NCBI GenBank assembly: GCA_012646185.1
Contig: GCA_012646185.1_4706.1
Strand: one strand, 5' to 3'
Source: a phage
Length of the DNA stretch: 64,000 nt
Shown in pieces: positions 2,330 to 49,066 of this stretch. The notes under the pieces were generated by a model. That model was not told where the DNA came from, did no database searches, and saw only the letters and a list, made by a program, of their open reading frames with translations. Made by a program: the position numbers and the translations under genes. Each line of letters begins with the position of its first letter. Position 1 is the stretch's first letter.

Positions 2330-3655
2330 TCACTTCAAAAGCTTAGACACCGCCATGCTTCGCGCCATCGCAACGTCATACGCATCCATGATCGCGTCAC
2401 CGATAGCGGTATGACGGATCAACGGAATACCCATATCTGGATACTCTTTGGTGCCTAAGATGGATACCGGTTTGTCTTGATACGCGGCAACCATCGAACG
2501 AATATCCTGAACCTGGTTATAACGGCAGATTGGTTTGAAGCCCGCTTTACGGAACCAATGCTCTAATTGCGGCCAATCTGTTTCACCACGAGCAAGATAA
2601 TAGAAGGTATCTTTACCGTAGTATTCGGTCATTTTGTCACGAATACTGTTGACGAACGCATTTACTTCGGCGATGGCTTCTTTATAACCCATTGCCTTAC
2701 AATGTTGAAAACAATAGTCGCGCGCTTCCTTTGGTGCTTTGGTTTGCCACCATTCTACTGTTGATTCACTGATACGACCACCGTCAGCGATTTGACCATG
2801 AACGTCAGGGAAGATATCTATACGCGGACCGTTAACAATGGATTCTGGATTAGCCAGATCGAAGAACACGATACCGATTTCCAGCAATACTCCATTCTTT
2901 TCCAGACTAAGGTTTTCAACATCTAAACAAAATGCGGGCTTCTCTACCGCTAACGGCTCGAACGAATGGTTGCTGGTATCCGATTCGGTTTTAAGTTCGA
3001 CGACAGCCGGATCGGTATCCGTAGGTTTCAGTTCTACTACAGCATCATCGAGTCCCGATAACGAAAAATAGTCTTCGAAGAAATCGGATATCGTCATACC
3101 ATGCAAATTGATATCGCAATCTTCCAACCATTGCTTCAACTGGTGCTCACCGGCATGAATCGCTAAACGGCACGGTCCGGAACGATCATCTAGCGCTGCA
3201 TCGATCCAGAAGAAAGCGCGTATAAGTAAGTAAGGATTATACTCCGCGATGATTTCTTGGCTAGCCGAGAAATCGTACACCATTAGTTGTATTATTCCCT
3301 TACGCGTGTTATACGGATCAACTTTCAATCGACGCACTATTTCTTCTACGAATTCCAACGCGCGCGTGTACGAGGTGGACCCACCTTGTTCATACGAACA
3401 TATACCCGTCAAAAGTTCCTTATAGGACGCATATGGAACCATAGGCGATAATTTGTACGACAGTTCAGTATTGTAATTATCGCATAATTTCTTCGGGGCG
3501 ATAGCATCCTGTATCGCTGTAATAAACGCCGGTCCATCAATATCAAACAACCATCCTTGACGCCGGTATGCAGTGTACCGTAATAACGCACCGATAACTG
3601 CCTGGGGCGGTGTATATTCTTTCCCGTTAATTTCAAACAGTAGTTTGCTCATCAT
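2330..3655 (-). CDS. protein with C-terminal DEDDh-type 3'-5' exonuclease domain
   Basis: 441-aa ORF; Exo I-like FCLDVENLS, Exo III-like RHTAIGDAIMDAYD (H-x-A-x-x-D-A); internal repeat AVVELK x2. Confidence 0.55.
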   Translation of the reverse strand: MMSKLLFEINGKEYTPPQAVIGALLRYTAYRRQGWLFDIDGPAFITAIQDAIAPKKLCDNYNTELSYKLSPMVPYASYKELLTGICSYEQGGSTSYTRALEFVEEIVRRLKVDPYNTRKGIIQLMVYDFSASQEIIAEYNPYLLIRAFFWIDAALDDRSGPCRLAIHAGEHQLKQWLEDCDINLHGMTISDFFEDYFSLSGLDDAVVELKPTDTDPAVVELKTESDTSNHSFEPLAVEKPAFCLDVENLSLEKNGVLLEIGIVFFDLANPESIVNGPRIDIFPDVHGQIADGGRISESTVEWWQTKAPKEARDYCFQHCKAMGYKEAIAEVNAFVNSIRDKMTEYYGKDTFYYLARGETDWPQLEHWFRKAGFKPICRYNQVQDIRSMVAAYQDKPVSILGTKEYPDMGIPLIRHTAIGDAIMDAYDVAMARSMAVSKLLK

Positions 3656-3667
3656 AACACCTTTTCA

Positions 3668-35257: not shown

Positions 35258-35617
35258 CAAAATCTTCAGTATGAATCGCTACTTCATACCCGCAGCATTA
35301 CCTGCAGCTCCTGGTGTTACCAGGATGTTGAGAGTATATCATGCCCATATTCCAAATGGAACGTAGGACTTCCGCGCTGGATCTCGCTTGAGACCACTTA
35401 CTCGTTGAACGTTCTCCTAAACGGAGCTTCGCTGCTGATTGGACATTGTTACGTACGGTAGGCGTCCCATTAAAGGGATTTTCATTGAAGCCGCGTACAT
35501 CCGTTACCTTGTTTCTACCTTATCGGTTCCTCTTACGAGGCGTAACGGCTTTAGCCTATTCCAGCAATTCACGGAATGCATATTCTCCTTTTCAGGAGAT
35601 AAGGCCATGGCTCTGGC
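35258..35617 (-). ncRNA. putative self-splicing intron 1 (ORF-less, group I-like), boundaries approximate
   Basis: About 360-nt hairpin-rich sequence between DFDGD codons and resumption of beta-prime homology; tandem relative of intron 2. Confidence 0.5.
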
Positions 35618-35632
35618 ATCACCGTCAAAGTC
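35618..35632 (-). CDS. RNA polymerase beta-prime micro-exon encoding DFDGD (proposed)
   Basis: Minus-strand codons GAC TTT GAC GGT GAT; flanked by the two intron copies; exon 1 ends ...GYNA. Confidence 0.5.
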
Positions 35633-35982
35633 CACATATCTTCAGTATGAATCGCTACTTCATACCCGCAGCATTACCTGCAGCTCCTGGTGTTACCAGG
35701 ACGGAGAGATCATCTCATCACCCACGAAGGGTGTTCCGCGCTACCCTCAGCGAATTCGAGGGACATGATCGTTGAACCTTCCACCGATAATCGGTGGCTA
35801 GGCTGCTGATTAAACATTGTACGTTGGGGTGGCATCCTGGTTCAGGACTGTCGTTGAAGCCTCCCAACATCCACTCACTTATTTCCGCCTTATCGGCTCC
35901 CATAAGGGCAGAGTGGCTTTAGCCCGTCTCAGCAATTCACGGAATTCAAGCTCTTCCTTTCAGAAGGCAGGGCCTCATCTGA
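35633..35982 (-). ncRNA. putative self-splicing intron 2 (ORF-less, group I-like), boundaries approximate
   Basis: Follows the codon for Ala of ...KGYNA (exon ends in U); RNA ends in G just before GAC of DFDGD; track ORF reads 17 codons into it then stops. Confidence 0.5.
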
Positions 35983-37233
35983 AGCATTGTATCCCTTAAG
36001 GATCATCACGCTTAACCCGATGGTGTTATCCTGCGGATCGCGTTTAACCTTGGTGATTTCAAGACATTGGTTACTGCTTCGGTCAAGTGATGGGTTTCGA
36101 ACAAAGCCGCACACAATCCCATCGAACGGCGTATCAGCAATAAGCTCATCGTGCAGCTCGCTCATCATCGGATGATAATTACGGACATGTTCCGCAACGA
36201 ACGCACGCGCTGCTCTCGGTGAGTAACCACGATGGAATAACTTGGATTGGATATGTTCTTTATTGGTTAAAGTAAATGGTGCGTATGGGAAATGCAGATG
36301 ATAATAACGATGGTTCGCTGTTATCGAACTGATTACGGTACGCGTGGTGAATGGATGTAATGTACCTAATATGTTTTTACGTGTAATACCTTTCTTCTTA
36401 CCGATGAACTCATCGAAAATCGCTGCGTGGTATTGCAGTAGCTTCAATTGCACTTTCGCCATCCAGTTTTCTTTCTTTCTGGCGCTCAAAGGTGTTGTTG
36501 GATGATAGATACTGTTCAACGTACCAATAGCATCGATCGCACCTTCCATTTTGCTATCCGCATAACGACCGGTCGGCGTATTTTCGATAACGAACATCAT
36601 GGCTGCAGGAAAGCTGATATACTGACTGAAGAACTTATCACGATGGATACGGATGAATTCTCGTAGCGTGTCAACTTTCTCCATGTTCTTCGGTCCACGT
36701 AACGTCGGTCCTTTATACAAGATCTCCATGATGCGATCGAAGTTCTGTATAAAGCTATTTACGCCACGCCGTATCCCGAATACATCGAATTGCTGCTCCA
36801 GATAGTTCTTGAGTTCGATGGGTCGTTTTACATTTGGACGGTAACTGGCATCAATGAGCCACGTCATCGTTTCAAAGCTTTTGATATTCAACTCGCTTGC
36901 CAGCACGAGATGGACCAACGGGTTAATGAACGCATCGATTCCTTCAGGAACGCGCGCCCAAACCGTCGAACGAATCTCTTGTTCTGCTGGGTAGGTTACA
37001 ACCGTTTTACAGTTTGGACACACCGTGCCGAGTAGCTCACCACGATTGTAGAAACCACAACCACATTGTGGTGTGATATCCAACGTATCGCTGGAGTAAA
37101 CACGGGTGATAAAACTGTTTAATTTCTTCTTCTCTTCGACGACTTTTGTATCGTAATCATTCAACAAAATCGGCGTGAAAGGAAGTTCTGCGAGCTGTCT
37201 ATCGAAACTCACGATATCGAGCATGATGGCCAT
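35983..37233 (-). CDS. RNA polymerase beta-prime N-terminal subunit, exon 1
   Basis: Zn-finger CGCGFYNRGELLGTVCPNCKTVV (compare CxCGKY...C..CGVEV); NPSLDRSS (compare NRQPSLHK / NRAPTLHR); IGLSVMILKGYNA (compare LNLSVTSPYNA) immediately before the missing DFDGD. Confidence 0.65.
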
Positions 37234-37325: not shown

Positions 37326-39221
37326 TTAGAACAGGTTGAATGCCCCACCCATGTTGTTAACGCCAACATTCGGACGATCGCTACGTGCGTAGATGTTACC
37401 GGAGATGTTACCCAGACCACGAGCACGTGCTGCCATGTTACCACGAACAGCGGTACCTGCCAGATGCTGGATGTTCTCAGGACGGATGGTGAAGCCAGCA
37501 TCAGCCGCAGCTTCGATCAGCGCCTGCAGTGCTAACGGATCGAAGTCGTAACGCATTGCCCAGCCGGTTTGTTCCCAGCTACCAGACAGAACACGATCGA
37601 TGATTTCGTGACGAGCGACAACACGCTGAGACATCGTCATATCGGTACGGTCGAAGCTGTCTTCCCAAGCTTCTACGGTATCCGGGTTAGTGATGTTCAT
37701 CATGTACAGATCGTCCATATCACGAATATCGTGACGGTGACCATCCTGGTGGTTGTAGTAACCCAGCGGGATACGGTTACCGGTAGCGTAGACCAGCGGT
37801 TGGCCGTATTGATATTTCTTGCTGAAGCAACCCAGGGTAGTATCATCGAAGGCACGGTAAAGTGCTTTGTAGCCTTCAGAGACTTCCTGAACTTTACCTT
37901 CAACATTACCCGTATAGATCTTCTCAGCCGCCGGGATCATACGCAGCAGCCAGCTGTATTCGCCTTCTTCCGGTACGTCGATAGAAATCAGCAGAGACGG
38001 ATACAGAACCTGTTGCAGGAACTTGTAAATCTGCTCGTTGGTTTGCGTAGACAGATCCAGCGGTGCAGTCACTTCAGGATCCAGCACCATCGCCAGAGCA
38101 CCTGGGTTATGCGGACCAATACCACGAGCCGCGTTGCTGATTAAAGACTGTGCCCATGCCATGCCGCTGTTCAGCGTAGCGATGGTACCAATCAGACCCA
38201 GCACGAAGCTGTTCGGTGTGAACGCATCCAGCTCCAGCGGGTAAGCGCTGGTCATCACGTAACGCGGCTGGTATTGTACAGTCGGCGGTACCGGATAGCC
38301 GTTAACCAGAACAGGGCCTTGGTTGAAGGTCGGGTTCTGCGGGCTGTAGGTCAGGTCGATGTAACCGGTGGTGGCGACCAGACGCTGTTGACTATCGTAA
38401 TCGCTCATCGCTTGACGGATGCGGTTAGAGATAGTTACAGTGATGTCAGAACGCACAGGGTTACCAACAATATCACTGTCCTGCATACCGCTGGTGTTGT
38501 ACTGAACGCTGCTGATTGGCTGATCGCTTGCCATCATGCCCAGGTTGAACTGCGGCAGACCCAGTTTATCACCGAGACGGATTTCGATTGCGGTCTGGAT
38601 TGCGTTATCTGCAGCAGACAGCAGGGTGGTTGCCAGATGCGCAGATTCAGCGGTGATTTCATTGGTCACCACAGCCAGACCAGCGATACGAACAGTACCG
38701 TTAGACTTACCGCCAATAGCTGAATACATTGCCGCCATGACTTCGTTGATGAACGTACCGTTCAGGTTATCAACCCAGGTACGCGGTACCAGAATGTTAC
38801 CATGCGGACCTTGTTCTTCACGACGCGGCAGCGGAGCCAGACCAGCAACCAGCGGCAGGACGTAACCGAAGAAGTGGTTATGATCACCAACTTTTGCACC
38901 GCTCATAACAACCAGGGTCGGATACGGTACGCTGTACTGGTTCGGGTCAACCGCAACAAAGATGAAGTCGTCTTTGAACTGGGTATCTTCCAGATATTTC
39001 TCCATCAGACGACGGAGATTCAGTACCTGCTCGGAGCCGGTATTACGGCTGATACGACGGCTCAGTGTACGGTTGATCGTACGCATCGTATGAGTTACTT
39101 TAGGACGGTCGGCAAAATCTGCAGCGGTTTCCAGCGCCTCATCAGCACGTTGTGCGGTGCGGGTTTCAGCTGCACGAATTTCTACATTATCGTTACCGTT
39201 ATTACGTACGTCTAAGCCCAT
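37326..39221 (-). CDS. chmA: candidate phage-nucleus shell protein (chimallin); alternative is a major virion structural protein
   Basis: 631-aa ORF directly upstream of the beta-prime N-terminal gene (same order as phiKZ gp54-gp55); early-promoter motif 70 nt upstream; extended charged N-terminal tail. Confidence 0.45.
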   Translation of the reverse strand: MGLDVRNNGNDNVEIRAAETRTAQRADEALETAADFADRPKVTHTMRTINRTLSRRISRNTGSEQVLNLRRLMEKYLEDTQFKDDFIFVAVDPNQYSVPYPTLVVMSGAKVGDHNHFFGYVLPLVAGLAPLPRREEQGPHGNILVPRTWVDNLNGTFINEVMAAMYSAIGGKSNGTVRIAGLAVVTNEITAESAHLATTLLSAADNAIQTAIEIRLGDKLGLPQFNLGMMASDQPISSVQYNTSGMQDSDIVGNPVRSDITVTISNRIRQAMSDYDSQQRLVATTGYIDLTYSPQNPTFNQGPVLVNGYPVPPTVQYQPRYVMTSAYPLELDAFTPNSFVLGLIGTIATLNSGMAWAQSLISNAARGIGPHNPGALAMVLDPEVTAPLDLSTQTNEQIYKFLQQVLYPSLLISIDVPEEGEYSWLLRMIPAAEKIYTGNVEGKVQEVSEGYKALYRAFDDTTLGCFSKKYQYGQPLVYATGNRIPLGYYNHQDGHRHDIRDMDDLYMMNITNPDTVEAWEDSFDRTDMTMSQRVVARHEIIDRVLSGSWEQTGWAMRYDFDPLALQALIEAAADAGFTIRPENIQHLAGTAVRGNMAARARGLGNISGNIYARSDRPNVGVNNMGGAFNLF

Positions 39222-46566: not shown

Positions 46567-46887
46567 TCATTTTCTCCCTCTTCGAATACTACCGATACCT
46601 CTTTCGTCTAAGACGTCCCAGGCACGCTTTATTTCATCCTCCGTTGCTCTGGTATCTGGAGGGACAACCATAACACAGTCATGGAATGGCCAATGTGTAG
46701 GTCTGGGGTTAGCGAACAAATCATCCCATTCAAATGTCCATTCTTTCTTTGAGCGATTGTAGTAGAGCGTAAGGTACGTGTTGGTATACGCTGGATAACC
46801 ATGCATCACTTCAATATCCTTACGATCTTGCCGTTCCTGATTCCAATCGTTAAACCGCTTTCTTATTTTCTCCCACCACTTTCCCAT
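46567..46887 (-). CDS. hypothetical protein
   Basis: 106-aa ORF. Confidence 0.45.
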   Translation of the reverse strand: MGKWWEKIRKRFNDWNQERQDRKDIEVMHGYPAYTNTYLTLYYNRSKKEWTFEWDDLFANPRPTHWPFHDCVMVVPPDTRATEDEIKRAWDVLDERGIGSIRRGRK

Positions 46888-46940
46888 GCTTTCTCCTACA
46901 CGGCATAAAAGCCTGCCCCGAAGGACAGGCTCGATAGAAC

Positions 46941-47141
46941 TTAACGACCATCCAATTTCAATGAAGGATGGTTGACGATATGTGCGTGTTTTGCTGGGTC
47001 ATATAGCTGATATGGAAAATAGCCATGCCATTGACGGCCTTGGCATTTCGTACACAGGAACTGACCAACACCTTGTCGATTCTCGTAAGCGAGTTCGGTA
47101 CTATCAACATGACCGCAACGTTCGCAGATAAACAGCGACAT
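46941..47141 (-). CDS. small zinc-ribbon protein
   Basis: 66-aa ORF; CERCG...CTKCQ. Confidence 0.45.
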   Translation of the reverse strand: MSLFICERCGHVDSTELAYENRQGVGQFLCTKCQGRQWHGYFPYQLYDPAKHAHIVNHPSLKLDGR

Positions 47142-47178: not shown

Positions 47179-48159
47179 TTAGAAAAGCAAGAAACCGCTA
47201 TTCTTCGCTTCCGCTACAGTTTCGTCACCAACTTTCGGTGCCTGTTGACGTGCGTTACGATGTTCGATGTAACGTTTCGCTTCGTCAGCGATTTGTTTGA
47301 TAATACCCCCTAAACGATCGGTACTTAAAACAAACGACGTCGCTTCACGAATCGGGCTGCTTTCAGGCACAAAACCATCACAGCTGTAAATAGCGCTAAC
47401 ACCCATGACTTTTGTCGCGTCTTTCGGATAAAGCGTACAGAAAGCAATCGGGCTATCGTTCTCTTTCGTCCAATCGTATCCCATGAACGTATTCAGTTCG
47501 GTGATCGTTGGTTCCAAACCGGTAACACGTGGATGGTTTAAGAAGTTTTCCAGGTCGGCGCTGTCAAGACGACGGTTCTCGCCAGAAAACAGAACACAAA
47601 GCTGGCTAATAACAACCTGCACGTCCAGGTTGACATCCTGCTCCGATTTCCCATTTTCGCCATTCATGTGATAGCTAACAATCACTGGACGTTTCAACCC
47701 TTCTGCAGCCGCCATCAGTCCCTTGAAGGTGCGATCGGCGTTGATCGTCTGGCGCTCATCATCGAACGAGGCAACGATACAACACACCACACGTTCACCG
47801 CGTTCCAGCAGGTTAGCAACCAACGCAGGACCGGCAACAGAACCTGAACCACCGCTCAAACTAAAGACCACGATATTAAATTTACCGGGCGTACGCTTAT
47901 TCAGAATACCCGGGATTTGTGAACAGATCAGTTCAGCGTTCTCATCACGCTTCTTACCAGAACCGTCTAACTCACGACCGGCTGCATCTTTAAAGATGTA
48001 AATATGATCGTCACCCAGTGTGCTATCGCGTAGGTTAGCGCGGCTGGTATCGACATACGTCATGCTGTGTAATCCTTTCGCGACTTCGCCTTCAAATGCT
48101 GAGCCGATTTCGCCACCACAACCACCGACAGCCCAAATATGTACTTGGTTCTCTTGCAT
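47179..48159 (-). CDS. phuZ: tubulin/FtsZ-like GTPase PhuZ
   Basis: 326-aa ORF; N-terminal AVGGCGGEIG (T1 loop) and SLSGGSGSVAGP (tubulin signature GGGTGSG-like). Confidence 0.8.
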   Translation of the reverse strand: MQENQVHIWAVGGCGGEIGSAFEGEVAKGLHSMTYVDTSRANLRDSTLGDDHIYIFKDAAGRELDGSGKKRDENAELICSQIPGILNKRTPGKFNIVVFSLSGGSGSVAGPALVANLLERGERVVCCIVASFDDERQTINADRTFKGLMAAAEGLKRPVIVSYHMNGENGKSEQDVNLDVQVVISQLCVLFSGENRRLDSADLENFLNHPRVTGLEPTITELNTFMGYDWTKENDSPIAFCTLYPKDATKVMGVSAIYSCDGFVPESSPIREATSFVLSTDRLGGIIKQIADEAKRYIEHRNARQQAPKVGDETVAEAKNSGFLLF

Positions 48160-48223
48160 GTGAACTCCTAATTTAATATGTATTTAACGCACAATGAATC
48201 TTTCTTTGCTAAAGGGGTGACCC

Positions 48224-49066
48224 ATGGGTGCTATTGACTACAGTGTAGATCGTATCTGTCGTACAATACCGGCAGATATCCTACAGTATTGCTATATCGA
48301 TCGTTACGACTGGCGTAATCGCTATCCTCGTTCCGTAGAAGACATCATTACCGATTGGGTAATCCGTAAACGGGTTATCGGCGACATCGATATCTACGGG
48401 GGGCTACAAACCGTTATCCCCCTTGATGATGCCGGTGTCACTATCGAAGAAGTCACCATTAACTGTTATGTTTTCCACATTCCGTTGGAAGCCACACAGG
48501 GACGTTATATCACGTCCGCATTATCCATTATTTCAGGGAGCGTGAACAACTACGGAATAAACTATAACGGGCAATGGGGTGCTTTCAACCAAACCCAGTT
48601 TCAACGTCAGCTTTGTGGGTGGAACCCCGCAAGCAACACGTTACAGCAAGGGATGAACGCGTTCGGTCCCATGAACGTTCTTAGTACAGCCAACGTTGAT
48701 ATCATCGCCCCTAACACCATCATGGTGAACAACGTCACGCCTGTACAATTTCCCCTGAGCCTACGCTGTTTCCTTGCCCACGATCCGGAACTTACCAACC
48801 TCAGCATGGAGGTTTGGAACGACTTCTACAAACTCTGTTTATACGCCACGCAAAGTGACATCTACAACAGAACCGTTATCCGTCTCGATAGAGGTGTTAC
48901 AGCACAAGGACAAGAAGTCGGTGCATTCAAGGAATACATCGATCGCTTTGCCGATGCTGAAAACACATATCAGGAATTCCTGAACGAAACGTGGGCTGGC
49001 GTTGCCGCCTGGAACGATCCGCAAACTAAACGTCGCGCCATTCGACTACAAACCGGTTACTTCTGA
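48224..49066 (+). CDS. hypothetical protein
   Basis: 280-aa plus-strand ORF. Confidence 0.5.
   Translation: MGAIDYSVDRICRTIPADILQYCYIDRYDWRNRYPRSVEDIITDWVIRKRVIGDIDIYGGLQTVIPLDDAGVTIEEVTINCYVFHIPLEATQGRYITSALSIISGSVNNYGINYNGQWGAFNQTQFQRQLCGWNPASNTLQQGMNAFGPMNVLSTANVDIIAPNTIMVNNVTPVQFPLSLRCFLAHDPELTNLSMEVWNDFYKLCLYATQSDIYNRTVIRLDRGVTAQGQEVGAFKEYIDRFADAENTYQEFLNETWAGVAAWNDPQTKRRAIRLQTGYF

Follow-up and report, generated by a model that had tools for sequence, protein, structure and literature searches.

A Goslar-type PhuZ tubulin gene in a jumbo phage genome, its gene neighbours and the expected behaviour of its filaments

Which protein is encoded at 47179..48159 in a 64,000-nt stretch of phage DNA, and what would that protein do in an infected cell? 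The whole of the stretch that was analysed is referred to here as the window. The initial annotation had regarded the product as a tubulin-like PhuZ homolog and, on the pattern of other jumbo phages, as the material of a spindle that centres the phage nucleus. PhuZ relatives are encoded in 157 phage records, mostly of jumbo phages of Pseudomonas, Erwinia, Serratia, Klebsiella, Ralstonia, and Vibrio. The tubulin/FtsZ GTPase domain of PhuZ is shared with TubZ (Clostridium phage c-st 3v3t; 4xcq) and with FtsZ, proteins whose respective roles in DNA partition and cell division are unlike that of PhuZ.

Identity of the reading frame and its product

In the ORF listing of the window, one ATG-initiated ORF spans 47179..48159 exactly, on the minus strand, and comprises 326 amino acids and a stop codon. 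A Shine-Dalgarno sequence, AGGAG (48165..48169, minus strand), can be read 5 nt upstream of the ATG. A profile search aligned the product with PHROG 4733, 'tubulin PhuZ', over profile positions 1-323 of 323 (E 1.1e-66), and the best match in the PDB was 9pm9_C (also 9pmk; E 5e-219), from which it differs by two substitutions. In the same database, it matched the structure of phiKZ gp39 (3zbp, E 1.6e-28) and the structures of 201phi2-1 PhuZ (3r4v/3rb8/3j5v, E 6e-15). The general-purpose libraries were less responsive; in a single-sequence search, Pfam Tubulin (PF00091) gave E 7.4e-7 and 30.1 bits, below its gathering score of 33, and no NCBIfam model matched the product, so that these libraries alone would not call PhuZ. 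The name given in the initial annotation is nevertheless borne out by the full-length PHROG match, by the PhuZ crystal structures, and by identity at 324 of 326 residues with the PhuZ of Escherichia phage vB_EcoM_Goslar, of whose gp234 (HOV27_gp234, annotated 'tubulin PhuZ' in RefSeq) the window protein is the orthologue.

The 9pm9_C deposit carries the title 'Tubulin/FtsZ GTPase domain-containing protein'. A literature search found no primary paper for 9pm9, and the one paper that cites this entry employs it as a cryo-EM benchmark. The suggestion that 9pm9, in which PhuZ is chain C, represents a defence-sensor complex from a paper on Avs5 was considered and rejected, as the structure in the Avs5 paper is 9RP3 (JADA) and PhuZ appears there as background only.

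Connection to the wider superfamily was sought with a PhuZ-family profile built from the window protein and five other PhuZ proteins, either characterised or annotated. This profile reached TubZ (3v3t, 4xcq) at 5e-13 and many FtsZ structures at values down to 1.5e-7; the matches are confined to the N-terminal GTPase half (about positions 3-209 of the profile). The search against tubulin/FtsZ and PhuZ families that had been proposed as a check came out in favour of both memberships. That the two TubZ structures are the nearest solved relatives of the profile outside PhuZ, and that some database records label PhuZ homologues 'TubZ', could be taken to mean that the window protein is a DNA-segregation tubulin of the type found on Bacillus plasmids and in phage c-st, engaged in partitioning a plasmid-like prophage. 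This is very improbable, since the single window sequence, which matches PhuZ structures at values on the order of 1e-28 and 6e-15, retrieved no TubZ structure from the PDB. Moreover, the genome in which the gene resides is that of a lytic jumbo phage with a chimallin gene, and no TubR-like match came from either of the genes next to it, one coding for the neck adaptor and the other for a small zinc-ribbon protein. Complete E. coli genomes, when searched, contained no integrated or co-assembled copy of the region.

The residues on which a tubulin-like GTPase depends were examined in an alignment of six PhuZ proteins, namely that of the window and those of 201phi2-1 (gp59), PhiPA3 (gp28), phiKZ (gp39), PhiEaH1, and Ea35-70, which are 24-30% identical to the window protein. 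Both motifs quoted in the initial annotation are present: the G-box, or T1 nucleotide-binding loop, AVGGCGGEIG at residues 10-19 (48103..48132, minus strand) and the T4 loop, SLSGGSGSVAGP, at residues 100-111 (47827..47862, minus strand). The latter is the PhuZ form of the tubulin/FtsZ signature, reading S-G-G-S-G-S-V and so departing from a strict fit to [SAG]GGTG[SA]G, the classical tubulin signature; its core, GG[ST]GS, occurs once in the six-frame translation of the whole 64 kb. The T7 loop, RRLDSADLEN, follows at residues 196-205 (47545..47574, minus strand). Invariant columns are G12 and G13 in the G-box; D37, T38, N42, G66, G68, and R71 beyond it; G103, S105, G106, S107, G110, and P111 in the T4 loop; N140; D199 (nt 47563-47565) and D202 (nt 47554-47556) in the T7 loop; and G322 near the C-terminus. 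By residue count in the HMMER alignment, D199/D202 correspond to D187/D190 of 201phi2-1 PhuZ, and the catalytic T7-loop residues are hence in place. The LDxAD motif of the PhuZ T7 loop resembles the (V/L)DFAD motif of FtsZ.

The C-terminal tail, APKVGDETVAEAKNSGFLLF (residues 307-326; 47182..47241, minus strand), ends in GFLLF, and its 20 residues include three acidic ones and carry a net charge of -1. An acidic tail had been expected; the tail and its terminal G-hydrophobic motif are indeed there, and its acidity is weak, at a level normal for the family. Among 65 distinct homologues from IMG/VR, the terminal G-hydrophobic-hydrophobic motif is the conserved tail feature, and net charge ranges from -6 to +3 with -1 as the modal value. 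Weak acidity was for this reason rejected as a distinguishing feature of the window protein, although the tails of the five reference proteins, those of 201phi2-1, PhiPA3, and phiKZ among them, are more acidic, at -2 to -5.

Taken as a whole, the reading frame at 47179..48159 almost certainly encodes PhuZ, a tubulin/FtsZ-superfamily GTPase of nucleus-forming, chimallin-encoding jumbo phages, and belongs to their Goslar-like lineage. From its 99.4% identity to 9pm9_C and its homology to crystallised PhuZ proteins, a tubulin/FtsZ fold is predicted for it. The gene is not new: annotation, imaging, mutation, and structure determination have all been carried out on the Goslar protein, of whose gene that of the window is a near-identical allele.

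Relation to Goslar, wider relatives and genome context

The Goslar protein gp234 (YP_009820885.1; PDB 9pm9/9pmk) has the same length as the window PhuZ and is identical to it at 99.4% of residues, the exceptions being H89 and E229 in Goslar versus R89 and D229 in the window, both in variable columns. D202, the residue that has been mutated experimentally in Goslar, is also present in the window protein. The two genes differ at 12 nucleotides, of which 10 changes are synonymous and two non-synonymous (pN/pS 0.058), which shows purifying selection. Goslar likewise has the same flanking genes and the same terminator, together with an identical 64-nt upstream spacer.

These figures bear on the idea that the window carries a decaying or non-functional copy of an accessory gene. 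PhuZ is non-essential and is missing in about a third of chimalliviruses (PMC12908238), an accessory status also given in PMC11724907, and Xanthomonas phage Xoo-sp14 has an unrelated 132-aa ORF in the corresponding slot between the adaptor and zinc-ribbon genes. Against such decay are the intact full-length ORF with its strong ribosome-binding site, the conservation of all catalytic and nucleotide-binding columns, the low pN/pS ratio, and the restriction of both substitutions to variable columns; a degenerate copy is scarcely credible, and the window gene is better regarded as a functional PhuZ.

DNA around PhuZ is 98.6% identical to that of vB_EcoM_Goslar, and collinearity with Goslar extends over the whole window (Goslar positions 132,659-197,597) at 94-98% identity, a level of divergence that makes the source of the window a distinct isolate or a metagenomic relative. 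The window phage is about 96-98% identical to Escherichia phage Goslar. One segment of about 710 nt, at 2950-3662, has no megablast match to the Goslar segment 135613-136262, which lies inside the 3'-5' exoribonuclease gene gp147; both of its flanks are 94-96% identical to Goslar, and it is a locally diverged or replaced segment.

Use of the T4 peptide SLSGGSGSVAGP as a pattern retrieved 112 relatives from IMG/VR. Two further Goslar-like genomes in that collection are 96-98% identical to the window in this region, so that neither is the same as the window. Contig 3300045988_173921 encodes a PhuZ 100% identical to that of the window, but was rejected as its source on account of DNA that is only 98.2% identical over 3,978 nt. 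Outside the Goslar group, every PhuZ is only 24-34% identical to the window protein; because none exceeds about 34%, Goslar-type PhuZ is an isolated branch. The well-characterised proteins of 201phi2-1 (gp59; 3r4v, 3rb8, 3j5v), PhiPA3 (gp28), and phiKZ (gp39; 3zbp) are only 24-27% identical to it. These proteins, of 315-327 amino acids, nonetheless share with it the G-box, the T4 GGSGS, the T7 DxxD, and a tail ending in G-hydrophobic residues, and they are encoded by jumbo phages that, as the window phage does, also encode chimallin.

The chimallin gene of the window (37326-39221, minus strand; 631 aa) lies about 8 kb from PhuZ and corresponds to gp246, the nuclear shell protein of Goslar, inside an ungapped block of 97.7% identity. 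Mapping to Goslar further places in the window three split RNA polymerase genes, for beta-type subunits, two helicases, a DNA polymerase, the terminase large subunit, and virion proteins, as well as the first ~380 nt of a tail sheath gene that is cut by the window end. With these genes, the window shows the complete gene context of a chimallivirus that forms a nucleus.

One of the polymerase genes is interrupted. Residues 1-415 of 201phi2-1 gp107 align with 37233-35983 and residues 422-482 with 35257-35060 of the RNA polymerase beta-prime gene, and the insert between them (35258-35992, minus strand; about 725 nt) contains two tandem group I intron-like units of ~370 nt, which share blocks of 76-93% identity. 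No Rfam family matches anywhere in the window at the gathering threshold, and the two units score 23.1 bits (35992-35686) and 27.4 bits (35671-35310) against RF00028, both below the gathering score. The insert contains no HNH endonuclease ORF. At the same beta-prime codon position, Goslar differs in having ~1.8 kb, in which another group I intron (46.9 bits) is accompanied by an HNH endonuclease gene and by an incomplete copy of the second unit. An intron/homing-endonuclease difference of this sort between PhiPA3 and phiKZ is said, in work by Birkholz in 2024, to mediate competition between co-infecting phages.

Genes flanking PhuZ

Upstream of PhuZ, a divergent intergenic region of 64 nt (48160..48223; identical to Goslar at 64 of 64 positions) separates it from a head-to-tail adaptor gene on the plus strand (48224-49066). 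The adaptor, a member of Pfam DUF7484, matches Goslar gp233 (PDB 11ed_U, 8e-196) and PHIKZ042 (9xpe); gp233 is described as a T4 gp13-like adaptor in the 2026 Goslar virion preprint. Across 80 PhuZ loci from IMG/VR, an adaptor homologue is arranged head-to-head with PhuZ in 56, representing 15 of the 21 PhuZ clusters formed at 45% identity, and the spacers are mostly 64-240 nt. The neighbourhood differs in 201phi2-1, where the adaptor homologue gp73 is situated ~4 kb from PhuZ and no zinc-ribbon ORF lies downstream of PhuZ.

The 64-nt spacer presumably holds the promoters of both PhuZ and the adaptor gene. No sigma-70-like match falls within 48160..48223, matches around the gene are no more numerous than in shuffled sequence, and the only one nearby, whose -35 hexamer is at 48164, extends into the coding sequence. 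Goslar-type phages use their own RNA polymerases (PMC9891218), and the sigma-70 scan is for that reason uninformative.

Downstream of PhuZ, on the same strand and 37 nt away, is a 66-aa zinc-ribbon-like ORF (46941..47141, minus strand) that corresponds to Goslar gp235 and is probably co-transcribed with PhuZ. An intrinsic terminator hairpin (46909..46932, minus strand) follows, with a 10-bp GC-rich stem, a UUCG loop, and a UUUUAU tract (MFE -18.1 kcal/mol, z -2.9); it ends the PhuZ/gp235 unit, and its Goslar counterpart is annotated as a terminator at 180588-180607. Just past this terminator, a 106-aa ORF on the minus strand (46567-46887) matches PHROG 5903, a family of unknown function, at E 1e-18; among the 80 PhuZ loci, those of the Goslar group alone have this ORF downstream of PhuZ.

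The 66-aa protein has no PHROG assignment, no above-threshold Pfam match, and no match in the PDB, and it was not found in the literature. Its family is defined by the pattern CxxC..CxxC..WH..Y.P..N..PS, which is conserved in 18 distinct homologues. In 20 of the 80 IMG/VR loci, a zinc-ribbon ORF lies 0-69 nt past the PhuZ stop, its start overlapping that stop in five of them. Homologues in isolate phages were sought by tblastn. The gene is directly downstream of PhuZ in Xanthomonas phage LucasX too, and is separated from it by 1.8 kb in pPa_SNUABM_DT01 and by 69 kb in Erwinia phage pEa_SNUABM_54. In Xoo-sp14 (MT939492.1 186609-188087), the adaptor and zinc-ribbon genes keep their positions and the unrelated 132-aa ORF occupies the slot between them, as if PhuZ had been lost or replaced locally.

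Given its place before the shared terminator, and the retention of this position in a quarter of the loci (20/80), the gp235-family protein could be a partner factor of PhuZ that, for instance, nucleates or anchors the filaments or regulates how they are organised. This is offered as speculation and is unlikely; the linkage is broken in pEa_SNUABM_54, and in Xoo-sp14 the gene persists with PhuZ missing from its slot. Were it true, such a factor could help to explain why filaments form a vortex in some chimalliviruses and a bipolar spindle in others, the cause of which is listed among the unknowns in a 2025 review (PMC12908238).

Filament behaviour and its meaning

The part of the initial annotation that concerned function, a spindle centring the phage nucleus, is true for Pseudomonas phages and fails for the Goslar lineage, in which PhuZ forms a vortex and the nucleus is rotated without being held at midcell (PMC9891218; PMC12908238). 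In Goslar-infected cells, filaments of GFP-PhuZ form a vortex around the nucleus and reach out to the membrane, the nucleus turns in a direction that matches filament orientation, and a role of PhuZ in capsid trafficking has been proposed (PMC9891218; PMC12908238). The mutant PhuZ(D202A) needs far less expression in order to polymerise and forms no vortex, and only 29% of nuclei then rotate, more slowly (PMC9891218; PMC12908238). PhuZ (gp234) has also been detected by mass spectrometry in Goslar preparations (2026 Goslar virion preprint).

It might still be argued that the window PhuZ builds the canonical bipolar spindle of 201phi2-1, phiKZ, and PhiPA3, centring the nucleus at midcell, given that it belongs to the same family and has the same catalytic and nucleotide-binding residues as the proteins of those Pseudomonas phages, and that in some Goslar-infected cells the nucleus lies between two long filaments, much as in a spindle (PMC9891218). 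It is, however, the 99.4%-identical Goslar protein that makes the vortex, and the Goslar nucleus shows no midcell enrichment in two host strains (PMC9891218; PMC12908238). The D202A protein, furthermore, is dominant-negative, as expected of a mutant defective in hydrolysis, and reduces nucleus rotation with nucleus position unchanged (PMC9891218). A centring spindle is thus improbable for the window phage, and a rotating vortex is the preferred reading.

The Goslar mechanism is applied to the window PhuZ by analogy, on the basis of 99.4% identity, and the differences R89H and D229E would be expected to leave vortex and rotation behaviour unchanged. With the G-box and T4 loops as their GTP-binding elements, monomers would polymerise head-to-tail, the C-terminal tail of each inserting into the next subunit. 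D199 and D202 in the T7 loop of one subunit would complete the GTPase site of its neighbour, giving rise to dynamic filaments; dynamic, GTP-dependent filaments in infected cells have been shown for Goslar PhuZ (PMC9891218) and may be anticipated for that of the window. Arranged as a vortex around the chimallin shell, such filaments would push on the cell membrane, so that the nucleus would rotate and not be centred, and this rotation would probably spread capsid docking over the nucleus surface. Details of assembly, such as a three-stranded filament and tail-mediated contacts, are carried over by analogy from 201phi2-1 PhuZ and are an extrapolation, since the window protein is only 24-34% identical to any PhuZ outside the Goslar group.

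As a marker, the window PhuZ reliably points to a nucleus-forming chimallivirus from the Goslarvirus group. It also serves as a caution that the textbook function of PhuZ, the centring spindle, does not extend to the Goslar lineage, where a rotating vortex is found instead. Three of the accompanying observations may outweigh this finding, namely the undescribed small zinc-ribbon gene linked to PhuZ, the widely conserved head-to-head pairing of PhuZ with the adaptor gene, and the intron/endonuclease difference in the beta-prime gene between close relatives.
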